Below are positions 16,101 through 23,919 of a DNA stretch of 24,033 nucleotides, in pieces; positions within the stretch are counted from its first letter, which is position 1; every line of letters starts with the position of its first letter. The notes beneath the pieces are model-generated. The model did no database searches. It was not told where the DNA came from and was given only the letters and a program-made list of their open reading frames with translations. This stretch comes from a virus (taxonomy: Duplodnaviria > Heunggongvirae > Uroviricota > Caudoviricetes): IMG/VR virus record IMGVR_UViG_2690316176_000008, one strand, 5' to 3'. Made by a program: the position numbers and the translations under genes.

Positions 16101-16814
16101 TCAAAAATCAAGCCCTTGCCTGGATACATATCTGTCTGGCGGGAAGCCATAATAGCGGTGAAATACAGAGATAAAGTAGGCTCTACTTGAATAACCGCAT
16201 TTTGCTGCTACAGCCTGTCCATATCCATGCCGGGAACATAACATATTTACAGCAACCCGCATCCGTTCCTCAAGTAACAAATTACTGAACCTGAGACCTT
16301 CATCCTTGAGTTTTTTCTTTAACAAGCTCTCACTCATATGCAACTGTAGAGCAATCGCACCAAGCGTCCAGCTTGCTGATATATCTGTTTGAATTATCGC
16401 TCTGACTTTGGCACTTATACTGGATACACATCCACTTAAAAATAATGACATCCGTTCATCTGATTCAAACAGCGACAGGCAGGCCATCATAAGAAACATA
16501 TCCGTGGTCTCTCCGGAAAGTCTCTGACTGGTAATTAAAGCCACAGTCAACGCAGGATTGTTGGGTTCCAGCAACAAGTAAAGCGGAATGTCAGTCAGAG
16601 GACCTCTCGTCAGCTTATGCTGGCTTTCCAGATATTGACTTACTATAGAATGGCTTATATCGACAATTTTAACTTTGCCATAATGCATAAGGAAAAGCTC
16701 CCTGATGCATTTGGTGGCCAGAACGACTGAGCCGGGCTTAAGTGACAATGTATCCTTTTCAAGAAAAATATTAATTGGGGAACAAACCATGATAACTGAA
16801 CAGATAGCAGTCAT
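16101..16814 (-). CDS. AraC/XylS-family transcriptional regulator
   Basis: 237 aa. The C-terminal ~100 residues carry the two-HTH AraC signature (WTLGAIALQLHMSESLLKKKLKDEGLRFSNLLLEERMRVAVNML...GYSSRAYFISVFHRYYGFPPDRY). AT-rich gene. Confidence 0.85.
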   Translation of the reverse strand: MTAICSVIMVCSPINIFLEKDTLSLKPGSVVLATKCIRELFLMHYGKVKIVDISHSIVSQYLESQHKLTRGPLTDIPLYLLLEPNNPALTVALITSQRLSGETTDMFLMMACLSLFESDERMSLFLSGCVSSISAKVRAIIQTDISASWTLGAIALQLHMSESLLKKKLKDEGLRFSNLLLEERMRVAVNMLCSRHGYGQAVAAKCGYSSRAYFISVFHRYYGFPPDRYVSRQGLDF

Positions 16815-17329: not shown

Positions 17330-18035
17330 CCAGCCGCGCCCTAACAGGCGCACACGATCTGACATTTGCATCCAACTTCGTTACTTACGGCCCGTAAACG
17401 GGCTGCCCGGATAGGGAATCGATAACTGCTCTCCCATTTTATCCTCTTCAAGCTGGTGCTTTATGTAATCCTGTATCTTCGCCGTGTTCTTACCCACCGT
17501 ATCGACGTAATACCCTCTGCACCAGAACTCCCTGTTCCTGTACTTGAATTTCAAATCACCAAACTGCTCGTAAAGCATCAGACTGCTTTTCCCTTTCAGA
17601 TATCCCATAAAGCCGGATACGCTCATTTTGGGCGGGATCTCCACAAGCATATGGATATGATCTGCACAGCATTCAGCTTCCAGAATCCGTACACTTTTCC
17701 ACTCACACAGCTTTCTCAAAATACAGCCTATTGCTCTACGCTTCTCTCTGTAGAACACCTGTCTTCGGTATTTTGGCGCAAATACTATGTGATATTTACA
17801 GTTCCATCGGGTGTGCGCTAAGCTCTTTTCGTTCCCCATTGGGACCCCCTTTTGATTTCTTGTTTGACACTTGCAGTTGCCAGACCGCAAGGTGTTTTAA
17901 CAAATCAAAAGGGGTTTTAATAACTGGCTCAAAGCTGAAAGCTTTCCGGAACCCCCAGCCTAGCTGGGGGTTTTCTGTGCACAAAAAAACCCGCTCATCG
18001 GCGGGTTTAAGCTGTGCGGCGTAGTAACCACTCTT
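17330..18035 (-). mobile_element. IS200-like insertion sequence (IS200/IS605 family); ends approximate
   Basis: Contains a Y1 (HUH) transposase gene flanked by the expected structured left end: hairpin aaacccgc...gcgggttt plus T-run near 17985..18010 and palindrome cccccagc-cta-gctggggg at 17953..17970. A subterminal hairpin gcgcc-ctaaca-ggcgc lies near 17335..17350. Size about 0.7 kb. Exact termini not determinable by eye. Confidence 0.75.
17381..17839 (-). CDS. tnpA: IS200 transposase TnpA (Y1 HUH tyrosine transposase)
   Basis: From the internal Met: MGNEKSLAHTRWNCKYHIVFAPKYRRQVFY...ECCADHIHMLVEIPPKMSVSGFMGYLKGKSSLMLYEQF...YYVDTVGKN, near-identical to remembered IS200 TnpA. HxH (HIH) motif and catalytic Tyr region present. 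Confidence 0.9.
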   Translation of the reverse strand: MGNEKSLAHTRWNCKYHIVFAPKYRRQVFYREKRRAIGCILRKLCEWKSVRILEAECCADHIHMLVEIPPKMSVSGFMGYLKGKSSLMLYEQFGDLKFKYRNREFWCRGYYVDTVGKNTAKIQDYIKHQLEEDKMGEQLSIPYPGSPFTGRK

Positions 18036-18083
18036 AACAGTATATTCAACTTTTTACGATCGTAAAGCGTTCGGGGGAAATTT

Positions 18084-18644
18084 TTAAAGCCGCATCAACC
18101 GCTCCACCAGTTGCTCTTTACGGGCAACGATCCACCCGTGTTGCTCCAGATAAAATTTAAACCGTTCCAGAGTGCATACCATCGCATCGGCGGGCACCTT
18201 TTCCGTGAACTCAACCTGACCATGTTTATCGAAGTGGATCAGTAATGCGCATCCATCATTTTCGATAGATGTGTTTTGTGCCGCTGGTGGTTGTTTTTGG
18301 TTGAAATAACAGTCTTCCAGTTTTTCGAATACTTCCCACGCCTGATCGGTTTCGAGCATTTTGGCGTGACGGGCTGCTCCGCGTTCTGTCCAGAGTATGA
18401 GCTTTCGGACATTTGGGGCGATCGTTTGAAAATCCCTTAAAGAGATTTTCAAATTTTGGAGGTCTGCGCCTTTCGCAATTATGTAGTGCTTCCCTTCTGC
18501 AAATCGCTCTTTATTACGGTGGTGATTTCTATGAATACACTCGACGCTACAGCCATATAGTTTGGCCAGTAACTCTGTAGTGACAACTGGGAGCTGGTTG
18601 TGTGTGATCGGGGAAAGAGTTTCGACAGAAACTTGAGTCGTCAT
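18084..18644 (-). CDS. ORF6N-domain / antirepressor-like protein, first gene downstream of pR'-tR'
   Basis: 186 aa. The N-terminal ~100 residues (NQLPVVTTELLAKLYGCSVECIHRNHHRNKERFAEGKHYIIAKGADL...) resemble the ORF6N DNA-binding domain of phage antirepressor-like proteins. Family call from memory. Confidence 0.6.
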   Translation of the reverse strand: MTTQVSVETLSPITHNQLPVVTTELLAKLYGCSVECIHRNHHRNKERFAEGKHYIIAKGADLQNLKISLRDFQTIAPNVRKLILWTERGAARHAKMLETDQAWEVFEKLEDCYFNQKQPPAAQNTSIENDGCALLIHFDKHGQVEFTEKVPADAMVCTLERFKFYLEQHGWIVARKEQLVERLMRL

Positions 18645-18804
18645 GATAACGCCCTCTGGTTGATGGATTTAACTATCACCACCGTCAGGTTCCAATCATT
18701 GGGTGGTGAGACGTACAGGGTTGGAACTACCGGATCAACCAACCGGCGAGCCTTTCAGCTCCCCCATACGCCCCACCATTATTCAGATGTGCGTGTGCTT
18801 ACGA

Positions 18805-18830
18805 CAATAAAAAACACGCTCGCGGCGTGT
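18805..18830 (-). terminator. tR'-like rho-independent terminator downstream of the late promoter
   Basis: Stem acacgc / gcgtgt with a 5-nt loop, followed on the minus strand by TTTTTTATTG, about 60 nt downstream of the predicted pR' start. Confidence 0.6.
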
Positions 18831-18892
18831 GTCTGTCGCGGTTGAATATCCGGGGTTCCAATCCCGACGCCAGATTTTGCTGACGCGCGAGG

Positions 18893-18922
18893 AATATAGC
18901 CCCGGACAATGTATATGGTCAA
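18893..18922 (-). promoter_or_regulatory. late promoter pR' (sigma-70, -35 TTGACC, 18-bp spacer, -10 TATATT) immediately after Q
   Basis: On the minus strand TTGACC (18917..18922) and TATATT (18893..18898) are separated by 18 bp, a few nucleotides after the Q stop codon, the canonical position of pR' and the Q-binding element. Confidence 0.55.
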
Positions 18923-19686: not shown

Positions 19687-20736
19687 TTACCCAAGCACGC
19701 CAGTTGCAAAGGCGTGATCAAGAAAACGAAAAATTAAATCAACCTGAGAGCCATGCTTTTCTTCGAACGCCAGCGGATCCGCATGAAGCTCGTTGTGATG
19801 CTCCCGACACAGCGGTAGCGTGAAAATATCGTGAGATTTTGTCCCCATTCCGCCCTGACCATGACCAATCAGGTGATGGGGATCGTCGGCTGGCTTACCA
19901 CAACACGCACACGGCTGAGTCTTCACCCAGCGTGTGTATTTCTCGTTAACCCAGCGGCGACGTTTAGGTCGTTTCATGAAAGATTCCGGAGACTCAGGAT
20001 CAACGGCAATGCTGACCACCGTCTTTTCCTGTGGTGGGTTCTGTTGCTGGTGGACGTCAGGCAGTAACGCAATATTTTTTGTGCGCTGCTTCAGTATGCT
20101 GGTGGCGGTCTGCTCTCCCGGCACGATGTCGCTTTCACGGTACATTGAGCGGATTTTTTCCGCACGCACCCCCAGCGAACGACGTAATACCGCTTCCGGT
20201 AGCGCGTCCGCCACCTGATTGCGGACCGCCCACCAGGATAATTCAGCCAAAGATAATTCACGCTCCTGCGTACCGCTTATTGCGTGACCGATGACGTCAA
20301 TCATCCATGCTGACAGGTTTTGATGAGCAAGTTGCTCGAGTGATTCGGATGTCTGGTCACGCAGCTGGTTGTCGCAGTGCCAGCACAACACCATTGCGCC
20401 GGTACCATAACGGTGAATGACAGTTTCGCTGTGATGATAATCGCCGTGTGGCCACTGGCAGGATTTAATATGGCGCAACAGCCAGTCAGACAATGCACCA
20501 GCACCACCAGCAGCACGAATCACCCGTGCGTTACTGAAAAACGGCAGCAATGTTTTGTCTTCCTCCAGCGGCTGGCGAACGGCAGGAACGACCCCGGACG
20601 GCAGATTACGCATGCTTTTCGGTTCCGGCTCCATCAATACCCGGGTATTGTGGAATACTGGCATGGATTCACGGCCCGGCTTAACGATCACCAGCCCGAG
20701 TTCCGGTACCAGAACAGGTCGAAGTAATACCCGCAC
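19687..20736 (-). CDS. ydfU: DUF968-family protein (YdfU-like) with C-terminal Cys/His-rich HNH-like motif
   Basis: 349 aa. C-terminus QPCACCGKPADDPHHLIGHGQGGMGTKSHDIFTLPLCREHHNELH has the CxxC...HH...H spacing of DUF968/HNH-like zinc-binding modules. Position upstream of rem-hokD-relEB matches Qin ydfU. Identification from memory. Confidence 0.7.
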   Translation of the reverse strand: MRVLLRPVLVPELGLVIVKPGRESMPVFHNTRVLMEPEPKSMRNLPSGVVPAVRQPLEEDKTLLPFFSNARVIRAAGGAGALSDWLLRHIKSCQWPHGDYHHSETVIHRYGTGAMVLCWHCDNQLRDQTSESLEQLAHQNLSAWMIDVIGHAISGTQERELSLAELSWWAVRNQVADALPEAVLRRSLGVRAEKIRSMYRESDIVPGEQTATSILKQRTKNIALLPDVHQQQNPPQEKTVVSIAVDPESPESFMKRPKRRRWVNEKYTRWVKTQPCACCGKPADDPHHLIGHGQGGMGTKSHDIFTLPLCREHHNELHADPLAFEEKHGSQVDLIFRFLDHAFATGVLG

Positions 20737-20737
20737 G

Positions 20738-21016
20738 TTACCTCCAGATGCGTTGCTGGAATGTGCGAGACGGACGCGGTGGGCGTTCAGAGTAAGGAAG
20801 CCTGACGGAGATTATCCAGTGACGGTAGTCGAGACTAAGGGCTTTCTTAACCTCGTATCCGCGCCTGCGGTAACACTGAATTATCCATTCAGCCTGCTCT
20901 TCAGTACATGGAGGGTGTTGGAACCATTCAGACTTGAATGCGTGAGAATACCGCTCGTGCGTGCAGGCAAGAACGGGCGAATTATCAGAATTGTAATATT
21001 TTACGTTGCGTGCCAT
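20738..21016 (-). CDS. hypothetical 92 aa protein (nin-region-like, Cys/His containing)
   Basis: ORF abutting the DUF968 gene, with CTHERYSHAFKSEWFQHPPCTEEQAEW. No family recognised. Could instead be a frameshifted upstream extension of the DUF968 gene. Confidence 0.35.
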   Translation of the reverse strand: MARNVKYYNSDNSPVLACTHERYSHAFKSEWFQHPPCTEEQAEWIIQCYRRRGYEVKKALSLDYRHWIISVRLPYSERPPRPSRTFQQRIWR

Positions 21017-21082
21017 CGGTTTTCTCCGGTGGCACGGTGTTACTCAGCGGGAGTTCAGCCCCGCGCAAGATTGTAGATGAGT

Positions 21083-21334
21083 TTATTCTTCTGCAAAAGC
21101 TGAAAAGCCTGCTTTTATTCCGATCTCTTTCAGTGCCTGTAATGAAGTGACAAACTCACCTTCGCGCAAGATAAATCCGTCTGTCACTCGACCATCCACA
21201 AAATTAATTAACGCAGCCCCATTCTTTCGCAAACACATAATGCGGTAATGACTAACAAGATTTCCATTTTCAACGCACACAGCATAGAGGCCATCTTCAC
21301 AAAAAATTTTACGCAGTTCTTCGATGTTCATCAT
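21083..21334 (-). CDS. rem: Rem-like small protein (Qin prophage rem homologue)
   Basis: 83 aa (MMNIEELRKIFCEDGLYAVCVENGNLVSHYRIMCLRKNGAALINFVDGRVTDGFILREGEF...) matching my recollection of K-12 Rem in length and sequence. Located between ydfU-like and hokD as in Qin. Confidence 0.65.
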   Translation of the reverse strand: MMNIEELRKIFCEDGLYAVCVENGNLVSHYRIMCLRKNGAALINFVDGRVTDGFILREGEFVTSLQALKEIGIKAGFSAFAEE

Positions 21335-21550
21335 CAGAATCCTTCCGGATAATTAGCTCTCCCCTTTAAGGGACCATCCCTCTTATCCCTGCGCGCTACT
21401 TAAGTATTTTTGATTCTATTCCGGCGCCGTCCAGAACTTCAAACGCGTTGAAAATAAAAACAAAAACCCGCCGAAGCGGGTTAAGTGCGGGTGCGTTGAG
21501 GATGCCTGCCACATCAGAGGTGGCGAGGGATTTCTCCCCCGCCGGGTCTC

Positions 21551-21706
21551 TTACTCCTCAGGTTCGTAAGCTGTGAAGACAGCGACCTCCGTCTGGCCGG
21601 TTCGGATTCGTACCTCGCAGAGGTCTTTCCTCGTTACCAGTGCCGTCACTATGACGGTTAAACAGATGACGATCAGGGCGATTAACATCGCCTTTTGCTG
21701 CTTCAT
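21551..21706 (-). CDS. hokD: HokD (RelF) type I toxin, Hok/Gef family (below the track's 60 aa cutoff)
   Basis: Hand translation from the ATG at 21706 gives MKQQKAMLIALIVICLTVIVTALVTRKDLCEVRIRTGQTEVAVFTAYEPEE (51 aa, TAA stop), the HokD sequence. Directly downstream of relE. Confidence 0.9.
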   Translation of the reverse strand: MKQQKAMLIALIVICLTVIVTALVTRKDLCEVRIRTGQTEVAVFTAYEPEE

Positions 21707-21777
21707 AGCCTGCTTCTCCTGTCAACGCAAAGCAGAAGTGTCACCTTCGGTGCGAAACAGAGATGTCATGCTTTGGT

Positions 21778-22065
21778 TCAGAGAATGCGTTTGACCGCCT
21801 CGCTATATACTTCCGAGCGTTCTCTTTTCCCAACAGAAATCACGAAAACGACAACTTTCTCGTCTATAACCTGGTATACAAGGCGATAGCCTGAAGACCG
21901 GAGCTTAATCTTGTAACAATCAGGCATACCACGGAGCTTGTTTGCTTCAATCCGGGGTGACTCAAGTACTTCAACCAGCTTCTTTTTCAACTGTTCACGT
22001 ACCGTCGAGCCCAGCTTTCGCCATTCCTTTAGTGCCCGCTCGTCAAAATCCAGAAAATACGCCAT
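21778..22065 (-). CDS. relE: RelE mRNA interferase toxin
   Basis: 95 aa MAYFLDFDERALKEWRKLGSTVREQLKKKLVEVLESPRIEANKLRGMPDCYKIKLRSSGYRLVYQVIDEKVVVFVISVGKRERSEVYSEAVKRIL, essentially the K-12 RelE sequence. Confidence 0.95.
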   Translation of the reverse strand: MAYFLDFDERALKEWRKLGSTVREQLKKKLVEVLESPRIEANKLRGMPDCYKIKLRSSGYRLVYQVIDEKVVVFVISVGKRERSEVYSEAVKRIL

Positions 22066-22304
22066 CAGAGTTCATCCAGCGTCACACGTACTGGCTTAGG
22101 ATTACGAAGCCGTTCTTTCACTATCTCCACAAGTTCAGCATCTTCATCACTCAGGAGTGTCTGTTTGAACGGCAAGCGTTCATTGTCAGCGATATACTCG
22201 AGCATGAGACGAAGCGCTTCAGAAGGAGTTACACCCATTTTTTCAAGCGCGGCGTAAGAACGCGCTTTAAGTTCATCGTCAATACGCAGGTTAATGCTAC
22301 CCAT
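22065..22304 (-). CDS. relB: RelB antitoxin
   Basis: 79 aa MGSINLRIDDELKARSYAALEKMGVTPSEALRLMLEYIADNERLPFKQTLLSDEDAELVEIVKERLRNPKPVRVTLDEL. Its stop overlaps the relE start. Confidence 0.93.
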   Translation of the reverse strand: MGSINLRIDDELKARSYAALEKMGVTPSEALRLMLEYIADNERLPFKQTLLSDEDAELVEIVKERLRNPKPVRVTLDEL

Positions 22305-22375
22305 GTCTTACACCTCTTGTAATTACAAATGTCATTACAAGTATCGCACTACAACATGCTTAGGGCAAGTCACGA
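22305..22375 (-). promoter_or_regulatory. relBE promoter/operator (relO)
   Basis: Upstream of relB on the minus strand: TTGCCC-N17-GATACT followed by the repeated TTGTAATGACA / TTGTAATTACAAG operator-like hexad repeats, then GAGGTG RBS. Confidence 0.55.
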
Positions 22376-22786
22376 AGGAAGTCAGAAAGTAGTCGTAAGA
22401 ACAGTGATCACTGTCCGCTTTGTGCCAGGAGCAGCCATTGCTAAGTCCATCCTGTATTGTGCAGGTCAGCTCGTTTTTAAAGAGTCCGGCCATCATCTTA
22501 CTGGTACAGACACCATATACTTTGTGACGGTCAGGCTACATATGCACAACTCAACTTATTCATCTATTTTTTGCTTTAGCATGTCAGTGTTGCTTTCTCG
22601 TCGGCGGGTGAGCGGTGACCTGACCTGTCGATAAAGGAACGTAACACGTTTTATGCAACACCCGCATGCGGCAGAAAATTATTGCCGAACGTTTACCCCT
22701 GTCAACAAGCTTTACTTTCTGAGGCGCGCCAGCCCGCGAGGAAAACAATCTGAACATCAAACAATTAATGACACAAGAAATACGAT

Positions 22787-22813
22787 TAAAGATTTTTTTG
22801 TGCATGCCGATAG
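22787..22813 (+). promoter_or_regulatory. sigma-28 (FliA) class promoter upstream of flxA
   Basis: TAAAGATT (22787..22794), an 11-nt spacer, then GCCGATAG (22806..22813) matches the TAAAGTTT-N11-GCCGATAA flagellar promoter consensus. The flxA ATG is 24 nt downstream. Confidence 0.65.
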
Positions 22814-22836
22814 TGCTTTTTTAAAAGGAGAAATCT

Positions 22837-23169
22837 ATGTCTGTCACAATTCAGGGAAATACCTCAACCGTTATTTCAAACAACTCCGCCCCGGAAGGAA
22901 CATCAGAAATAGCCAAAATCACAAGACAAATTCAGGTGCTGACTGAAAAGCTTGGGAAAATCTCATCGGAAGAGGGGATGACGACACAGCAGAAAAAAGA
23001 AATGGCTGCATTGGTACAGAAGCAAATTGAAAGCCTCTGGGCTCAACTGGAGCAGTTGTTAAGGCAGCAGGCAGAGAAAAAGAATGAAGACGCGACAGTT
23101 CAGCCTGATAAAAAAGAAGAGAAAAAAGACGATACAAATACCGCTGGCACCATTGATATTTACGTCTAA
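22837..23169 (+). CDS. flxA: FlxA (FliA-regulated prophage protein)
   Basis: 110 aa MSVTIQGNTSTVISNNSAPEGTSEIAKITRQIQVLTEKLGKISSEEGMTTQQKKEMAALVQKQ..., matching K-12 FlxA in length and sequence as recalled. AAGGAG RBS. Confidence 0.85.
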   Translation: MSVTIQGNTSTVISNNSAPEGTSEIAKITRQIQVLTEKLGKISSEEGMTTQQKKEMAALVQKQIESLWAQLEQLLRQQAEKKNEDATVQPDKKEEKKDDTNTAGTIDIYV

Positions 23170-23183
23170 GTGACAGCCGTATT

Positions 23184-23206
23184 GTGGCCCTCATCGGGCC
23201 ACTTTT
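23184..23206 (+). terminator. rho-independent terminator after flxA
   Basis: Stem gtggccc / gggccac with loop tcatc, followed by TTTT, 15 nt after the flxA stop. Confidence 0.6.
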
Positions 23207-23595
23207 CGCCATCAGCCTTTTCTTTAAAGACATATTATCTTTGTATCATTTCTGATAGTTAACATTACAAGATATAAGTAATGGACGCACTCCCAATTAG
23301 TCTATTTAAATCGCCACGAGTTTAACTGACAACCCATGATCAATTATGAATTGCAACTATTTCTGTAGTCACTTTTGTGGGGACAGTCCACAAAACTGCC
23401 AACTTCCGCTTCTTGCTCTTAGCGGACATTAGCATAGGCTATTTACCATAACGCCTCATTACGCGCACCGCCCAGACTGACTCAGCGCGTTTCTGGCATA
23501 TCCCCGGTAAAACAAGTAACAAACCACCCGAAAATGAACACCAGAAACGCGACTTAAGAATCTACCCTATGAATGGATATGCACTCAACCGAATC

Positions 23596-23919
23596 GATCT
23601 TGGTTTCAATCTTTTTTATCGGGATCAGGCTTCTTTTTAGGTAACTTCGGGGGCTTAACTTGCTGATGACTTTGCGTTCGGCGCGTAAGCCAGGGATGGT
23701 CAGCTTTAGGTTTAACATAGTATTTTGAGCGTAAATCAATACGGGCATTATCCACTCGTTCATGGACACTCTTTTCATCATCCAGTGGTATAGGCTCCGG
23801 GCCATCAACATACTTTTCCCAGCCCAGCGCTTTCCCGTCATACAGAACGTTAATTTCACCGTCAAAGTTCTCGCATACAGTAACAACCGAATGCCTAAGT
23901 CGATATCCCCGGCCCTCAC
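23596..23919 (-). pseudogene. 3' fragment of an unknown ORF truncated by the IS629-like insertion
   Basis: An open frame with no Met runs from the IS boundary to a TGA at 23596..23598: ...SVVTVCENFDGEINVLYDGKALGWEKYVDGPEPIPLDDEKSVHERVDNARIDLRSKYYVKPKADHPWLTRRTQSHQQVKPPKLPKKKPDPDKKD. It looks more protein-like than the overlapping track ORF 23554..24012, which crosses the IS boundary. Confidence 0.4.

Follow-up and report, generated by a model that had tools for sequence, protein, structure and literature searches.

Since 1997, the flxA promoter has served as a textbook example of a FliA (sigma-28) target outside the flagellar genes. FlgM keeps FliA inactive until the hook-basal body is complete, and FlxA is a late (class 3) product because FliA is freed from FlgM only at that stage. 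In E. coli K-12, flxA (b1566) is carried by the Qin cryptic prophage. FliA ChIP-seq detected a peak at flxA with the motif TAAAGATTTTTTTGTGCATGCCGATAGT (Fitzgerald et al., 2014, PMC4183435), and flxA expression was 280 in the wild type versus 2 in a ΔfliA mutant (PMC4183435; corrected table in PMC4203485). Zhao et al. (2007, PMC1935009) measured a 28.4-fold decrease of flxA transcript in a fliA deletion mutant and an 8.2-fold increase at 5 min after inducing FliA. Moreover, genomic SELEX gave a peak of 23.2 in the ydfV/flxA spacer (Shimada et al., 2017, PMC5493296); since the sigma-28 holoenzyme alone was used, binding needs no accessory factor. Co-regulation of flxA with flagellar genes was seen in two further transcriptomes, and Ide and Kutsukake (1997, Gene 199:19), as that work is cited in PMC4183435, reported flxA to be FliA-dependent and dispensable for motility. 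For the K-12 sequence, it is established that the sigma-28 holoenzyme binds both promoter boxes, and that almost no flxA mRNA is made without it.

Other described systems share some features with flxA and differ in others. The class-3 flagellar promoters (fliC, tar, flgMN, flgKL, and tsr) have both 8-mers, the 11-nt spacing, and near-total FliA dependence in common with flxA, where the flxA data come from the identical K-12 sequence; the flgMN promoter also shares the identical -35 element, TAAAGATT (Table 2, PMC4183435). In contrast to these promoters, that of flxA lies on a mobile element, serves a gene without a known flagellar or chemotaxis role, and has G instead of A as the last base of its -10 element. 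Phage morons, such as lambda lom and bor, resemble flxA in having their own promoter and terminator, the latter being predicted for flxA, in lying between modules, in being counter-transcribed, and in being AT-richer than the structural genes. Unlike these morons, flxA relies on an alternative host sigma factor instead of sigma-70 and has chromosomal homologues with the same type of promoter. These chromosomal FlxA-like genes (PF14282; Enterobacter, Pantoea, and Erwinia) encode proteins with the size and architecture found throughout the FlxA family (102-119 aa, an S/T/G-rich N-terminal tail, a heptad-rich core, and a C-terminal IDIY[VI]) and have a sigma-28-type promoter 27-32 nt before the ATG. 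However, they show only 27-37% identity to FlxA, contain an additional G[VI]NRP motif ahead of IDIY[VI], lie off mobile elements, lack a separate terminator, and have a TCAAG-type -35 element.

The flxA unit and its identity to the K-12 copy

The DNA analyzed here, called the window, is a 24,033-nt stretch of a Caudoviricetes record (IMG/VR IMGVR_UViG_2690316176_000008). The flxA unit and its neighbors occupy the following positions, with the evidence for each in parentheses.

21551-21706, - strand: hokD (Pfam, K-12 annotation)
21778-22065, - strand: relE (Pfam, K-12 annotation)
22065-22304, - strand: relB (Pfam, K-12 annotation)
22329-22634, + strand: ydfV (K-12 annotation)
22787-22794, + strand: sigma-28 (FliA) -35 element TAAAGATT, 7/8 versus TAAAGTTT (direct reading, pattern search, identity to the published flxA FliA motif)
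22795-22805, + strand: 11-nt spacer TTTTTGTGCAT separating both 8-mers (direct reading)
22806-22813, + strand: sigma-28 -10 element GCCGATAG, 7/8 versus GCCGATAA (direct reading, pattern search, published motif)
22820-22822, + strand: probable flxA transcription start, about 7-9 nt past the -10 element (general knowledge of sigma-28 promoters)
22825-22830, + strand: Shine-Dalgarno sequence AAGGAG, 6 nt ahead of the ATG (direct reading)
22837-23169, + strand: flxA coding sequence, 110 aa (open reading frame list, Pfam FlxA, K-12 annotation, AlphaFold2 model)
23184-23206, + strand: intrinsic-terminator-like hairpin GTGGCCC-TCATC-GGGCCAC followed by UUUU (RNA folds)
23606-23755, - strand: ydfW (K-12 and DEC9B annotation)

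An earlier sequence-only reading had described positions 22787-23206 as a prophage flxA gene driven by a FliA promoter, in an arrangement known from K-12 Qin, and these coordinates proved exact on direct reading. The open reading frame at 22837-23169 matches Pfam FlxA (PF14282) over residues 7-101 with 53.8 bits (E = 2.3e-14), which is above the gathering cut-off of 26.3 bits, and is annotated flxA in K-12, in agreement with the proposed gene identity. Its neighbors fall in the Hok, RelE/ParE, and RelB families of Pfam.

From 22640 to 23260, all 621 bp, including the promoter, 5' UTR, coding sequence, and terminator, match E. coli K-12 MG1655 and W3110 at 100% identity, and the 28-mer at 22787-22814 is the FliA ChIP-seq motif itself. 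Of 5426 complete E. coli genomes, 1204 contain this 621-bp region at ≥99% identity, annotated flxA. The identity to K-12 extends over a 2354-bp block (21437-23790) with one difference, at 22403, and the gene order hokD-relE-relB-ydfV-flxA-ydfW is the same in the K-12 annotation. Thus, the Qin arrangement recognized earlier is confirmed base for base, and the flxA copy is ordinary because of this identity to the well-studied K-12 copy; flxA with its sigma-28 promoter is already known in full for the identical sequence.

Promoter and terminator-like hairpin of flxA

The flxA promoter matches the TAAAGTTT-N11-GCCGATAA consensus at 14 of 16 positions. In a search of both strands of the 24-kb window, this pattern had a single match, with 2 mismatches, and no second sigma-28 site was found at ≤2 mismatches. 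Upon realignment, the spacing between the 8-mers is 11 nt, as in the tar, fliC, and flgMN motifs (PMC4183435), so that the earlier call of a near-consensus FliA promoter with correct spacing stands. The -10 element ends 23 nt before the ATG at 22837, with the Shine-Dalgarno sequence in between; the GGAG of the latter is conserved among aligned homologues. A consensus scan for sigma-70 promoters and terminators reported no promoter for flxA on the + strand.

The ydfV-flxA spacer also contains a near-perfect match to a sigma-70-type promoter on the - strand (TTGACA-16 nt-AATAAT; 11/12; 22678-22705), which is directed antisense across ydfV toward relBE. The TGTCAACAAGCTT stretch of this site is also present in an Enterobacter homologue locus (L008). 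The known relBE operator repeats lie much nearer to relB, which implies that the site is either an additional upstream promoter or a chance match.

The hairpin downstream of flxA begins 15 nt after the stop codon (23167-23169) and consists of a 7-bp stem with 6 GC pairs (23184-23190 with 23196-23202), a 5-nt loop, and TTTT at 23203-23206. Its folding energy is -14.5 kcal/mol (z = -4.6 versus shuffles), and the same hairpin occurs downstream of the FlxA homologues in loci L011 and L026. However, the sequence after the stem, UUUUCGCC, provides only 4 U, and the hairpin was not reported by a generic terminator consensus scan, which demands 5 T in 8, for this reason. The hairpin is stable and GC-rich, but the term "clean terminator" in the earlier reading was slightly generous, since the U-tract is only 4 long and is not called by a simple scan.

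Sigma-28-type promoters across the FlxA family

A word-indexed protein search with FlxA returned almost exclusively near-identical E. coli proteins, whereas 57 relatives emerged from an exhaustive HMMER search against 1.84 billion representatives. Those with names belong to Enterobacter, Pantoea, [Erwinia] mediterraneensis, and unclassified Enterobacteriaceae. Pantoea ananatis, with 54% identity, and a few Salmonella were obtained through a profile search, and a search of species-representative genomes gave only 4 flxA-related loci. One of these 4, at 3930-4320 of E. coli ECGI0523 (L007; 66% identity), was rejected as a divergent FlxA. Its promoter is identical, and its coding sequence contains many single-base indels, an ATG read as ATA, and homopolymer length changes, so that it looks like the product of long-read assembly error instead of a real pseudogene.

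For 12 independent FlxA-family lineages, we scored the 200 nt upstream of the gene for the best match to TAAAGTTT-N(10-12)-GCCGATAA. The -35 and -10 elements and scores were as follows, where the spacer is 11 nt unless given.

Window: TAAAGATT and GCCGATAG, 14/16
Enterobacter sp. (L008): TAAAGATA and GCCGATAG, 13/16
Metagenome (L011): TAAAGTCT and GCCGATAC, 14/16
P. ananatis (L026): TAAAGTTT and GCCGATAA, 16/16
L015: TAAATTTC and GCCGATAT, 13/16
L014: TAAAGATT and GACGATAA, 14/16
L012: TCAACTTT and GCCGATAA, 14/16
E. roggenkampii (L017): TCAAGCTA and GCCGATAC, 12/16
Pantoea (L019): TCAAGTCG and GCCGATAA, 13/16
Erwinia (L021): TCAAGCTG-N12-TCCGATAA, 12/16
L023: TAAAGTCT-N12-GCCGATAA, 15/16
L024: TTAAGTTT and CCAGATAT, 12/16

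A sigma-28-type site scoring 12-16 of 16 was found in every one of the 12 lineages, down to ≈27% protein identity, and its -10 element always ends 23-38 nt before the ATG. By comparison, 3.6% of control 200-nt tiles from the same loci (n = 1042) reach 12/16, 1.2% reach 13/16, and 0.3% reach 14/16. The spacer is 11 nt, or 12 nt in two lineages, and its sequence is different in every lineage. In a three-way DNA alignment, ATTAAAG and TGCCGATA form conserved islands amid diverged upstream DNA. The TCAAG form is a recognized -35 variant, present for example in the flgKL and fliL promoters (Table 2, PMC4183435). Judged from this upstream DNA, predicted sigma-28 control characterizes the FlxA family throughout the sampled lineages. 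Its presence in every one of them argues that FlxA has a function under selection in connection with late flagellar assembly, although FlxA is not known to have a motility phenotype.

The distant members (Enterobacter L017, Pantoea L019, Erwinia L021, and L012) occupy one phage-free chromosomal slot, gltX-flxA-like-yfeR-yfeH-ypeB-ligA-zipA, in which the gene is followed by a yfeR-like LysR gene, a yfeH-like SBF gene, a ypeB-like gene, ligA, and zipA. In these four loci, the 3' end of the flxA-like gene abuts or overlaps the convergent LysR gene. E. coli K-12 presumably has tRNAs and xapRBA-yfeN at the gltX-yfeR position instead. A link between flxA and yfeR through a paper on a LysR regulator was considered and discarded; flxA appears there only among flagellar co-regulated genes. 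In limited literature searches, we found no earlier report of family-wide sigma-28 control of FlxA and nothing on FlxA function or family-wide regulation past regulon lists. The increment beyond what was known is thus the family-wide sigma-28 promoter together with the chromosomal gltX-yfeR homologues.

Predicted structure of FlxA

AlphaFold2, run with a 28-sequence alignment, predicted a hairpin of two helices in FlxA (residues 24-42 and 50-87; pLDDT 77-92) and disorder in the tails (residues 1-21 and 88-110), with a mean pLDDT of 66 and a pTM of 0.46 for the model. The prediction is thus of a small, soluble protein that folds into a helical hairpin and has disordered tails at both ends. A Foldseek search of the PDB with this model gave no match at E ≤ 0.001, and searches of the PDB and NCBIfam with the FlxA sequence returned only coiled-coil noise. 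A likeness of one homologue to Campylobacter FspA ("flagellum-secreted nonflagellar protein") was rejected, as it had E = 0.024 and 15 bits versus a cut-off of 120. No known RNA was found by Rfam within or adjoining the flxA unit. Our best guess, made with low confidence, is that FlxA acts as a coiled-coil interaction partner or accessory of the late flagellar program. It is speculation that FlxA might be exported via the flagellar apparatus, serve as a late-assembly accessory, or act against flagellotropic phages.

Expression of the flxA unit and alternative explanations

These results lead us to conclude, with near certainty, that flxA is a self-contained monocistronic class-3 flagellar unit, and that a defective lambdoid prophage carries it as a "moron" within its early region. 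It has the attributes of a moron, namely its own promoter and predicted terminator, a position between relBE/ydfV and ydfW in the lambdoid early region, and a deviant GC content (42.9%, compared with a window mean of 50.9% and 52-59% for the structural genes), and it is opposite in orientation to relBE, ydfW, and the late genes. In the proposed mechanism, FliA (sigma-28) RNA polymerase would recognize TAAAGATT-N11-GCCGATAG and start transcription about 15-17 nt before the ATG, which would give a 5' UTR of about 15-17 nt. Transcription would stop at the hairpin-U4, so that the mRNA would be monocistronic and about 385 nt long, and FlxA would be produced only in cells finishing flagella, alongside flagellin and the chemotaxis proteins. 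The unit runs against prophage early-right (dicC-side) transcription, which, together with its AT-richer composition, implies that flxA is governed by the host and would be expressed while the prophage is repressed. The promoter is silent if the source strain lacks active FlhDC or FliA. The flxA unit is a clean example of a prophage-borne host-regulon gene with its regulatory signals intact, and its promoter is useful as a positive control for recognizing alternative-sigma promoters in sequence. A targeted study of FlxA function would be reasonable, although flxA is not a surprising discovery.

It is extremely improbable that the flxA motif matches the consensus by chance or that, in the present prophage, it is the nonfunctional remnant of a decayed site. 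Short bipartite motifs do arise by chance, and 19 of 100 dinucleotide-preserving shuffles of the window gave at least one match at ≤3 mismatches, corresponding to an expectation of 0.21. However, at the 2 mismatches observed, the expectation from these shuffles is 0.01, and the site is correctly positioned ahead of a Shine-Dalgarno sequence and ATG. Moreover, it is the experimentally validated K-12 promoter sequence and is conserved across the FlxA family, so that this explanation is already effectively refuted. Nor do we give much weight to a functional tie, coordinated with motility, between flxA and the virulence cargo of the prophage (NleB, Lom, and the AraC-like regulator), which we regard as very unlikely. 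The sequence-only reading had placed flxA beside virulence-associated cargo, and both are indeed within one prophage. The only effector gene in the window is a complete NleB/SseK-family type III effector glycosyltransferase gene (1-981, - strand; 326 aa; E = 5e-171; 34% GC versus a window mean of 51%), which sits beyond the tail fiber genes and is the actual virulence cargo of the window. But this gene and flxA are ≈22 kb apart, at opposite ends of the prophage, and the effector gene is on the other strand and without a sigma-28 site, the sole such site in the window being that of flxA, whose actual neighbors are hokD, relBE, ydfV, ydfW, and IS elements. In addition, the hokD-flxA-ydfW cassette is a mosaic module that is identical in effector-free K-12, and related prophages bear other cargo (tccP2/espV or nleG/espW). 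The tie to virulence cargo thus has no support.

The origin of the promoter is a separate matter. The idea, implied in the sequence-only reading, that the prophage had placed the gene under host control is not well supported, given the conservation of the promoter throughout the family, including chromosomal copies outside prophages. Because of this conservation, the Qin-type phage most likely acquired the gene, promoter, and terminator together, and we infer a chromosome-to-phage direction from the genomic context and the near-invariance of the E. coli copies. In the opposite scenario, which we consider doubtful but deserving of some weight, the sigma-28 promoter arose in a prophage, and the FlxA-like genes of Enterobacter, Pantoea, and Erwinia are domesticated phage descendants. 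Consistent with this scenario, the clade nearest to E. coli FlxA always adjoins mobile-element genes: the prophage here, an integrase and transposase in Enterobacter sp. (L008 and L009) and P. ananatis (L026), and a transposase fragment in L011. By contrast, the most diverse members (27-37% identity) share the single syntenic, phage-free slot in three genera, which suggests old vertical inheritance, while the E. coli prophage copies are ≥99% identical across ≈1200 genomes, which suggests recent spread; in addition, the promoter is already present in all copies of the family. As a tentative broader account, still short of probable, FlxA may be an old enterobacterial member of the sigma-28 regulon, with its home between gltX and yfeR, that was captured with its promoter by a Qin-type phage and spread through E. 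coli. It could then be a late flagellar accessory, a substrate of flagellar type III export, or, on the prophage, a factor whose action is confined to flagellated cells and directed, for instance, at flagellotropic phages; the class-3 timing, the disordered S/T-rich N-terminus, and the conserved C-terminal IDIY[VI] hint at such functions.

Mosaic structure of the prophage

The window corresponds to a lambdoid prophage read from right to left. At its right end are IS sequences, ydfW, flxA, and ydfV, followed leftward by relBE-hokD, rem, a ydfU-like DUF968 gene, RusA, and a Q-type antiterminator. Left of the antiterminator are an ORF6N protein with C4/isrK-type RNAs, an AraC-family regulator, three tRNAs, and nanS-p, and the left part of the window contains lysis genes, head genes, an FI-J fusion open reading frame, Lom, a tail fiber, and the NleB-family effector gene.

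Homology to K-12 is limited to 19687-23790. Left of 21186, which includes the ydfU-like region, identity drops to 80-90% (10-20% divergence), and the segment 19687-21186 has 9-55 mismatches per 250 bp compared to the K-12 locus (L001), with a sharp mosaic boundary. Collinearity with Qin is absent past the flxA cassette, where the late region and cargo differ: the nanS-p gene, the three tRNAs, the AraC-like regulator, the C4/isrK module, and the NleB effector gene in the late region distinguish this prophage from Qin. The near-identity of 21437-23790 next to a diverged left flank implies that a Qin-type cassette is embedded by mosaicism in a different lambdoid prophage, and these sequence comparisons suggest a recent exchange of the toxin-antitoxin-flxA cassette between lambdoid prophages that are diverged elsewhere. 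A phage collection contained only one record with FlxA, PhiR42_1, which has the same cassette and so added nothing independent.

Rightward of ydfW, there is an ISNCY-type (ISEsa1-like) transposase remnant, as in many E. coli strains, which is interrupted at about 23920, where it meets the left end of an IS3-family element whose orfA ATG is at 23974. We take this element to be IS629/IS1203-like. Since K-12 homology ends at 23790 and IS sequence lies beyond, the Qin dicC-dicA immunity region is absent and replaced here by IS elements.

The prophage is defective. A 1085-aa open reading frame (3498-6755, - strand) has a DNA-packaging FI domain at its N-terminus and continues into the C-terminal two-thirds of the tail tip protein J, whereas the closest full prophage has ≈9 kb of tail genes (Z to K) between FI and J, which implies an in-frame deletion of the tail module. 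Moreover, the interval 9735-11000, which separates the lysis region from the S49 head protease gene (8229-9734), contains no - strand open reading frame of ≥70 aa. Related prophages have portal and terminase genes (≈4 kb) at this place, and their absence suggests a second deletion or decay, in the packaging module.

Several other features of the window were observed. The AraC-family HTH regulator gene (16101-16814, - strand; 42% GC) lies beside the three tRNA genes, which are Arg-tct, Arg-tcg, and one with a CAT anticodon that is annotated Ile in a relative. The sRNA STnc100 (15558-15748, - strand) is just upstream of nanS-p (13482-15335). No stx genes are in the window; the position of STnc100 and the tRNAs upstream of nanS-p is where Stx phages carry stx. 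Rfam matches were also obtained for STnc490 (17849-17972), C4 antisense RNA (18699-18783), isrK (18809-18886), and the c4 a1b1 target (18847-18899), and the ORF6N-domain gene (18084-18644) adjoins these RNAs. The region 17849-18899 (- strand) resembles a C4 antisense immunity or anti-repressor module in the style of P1/P7 and is situated upstream of the Q-type antiterminator.
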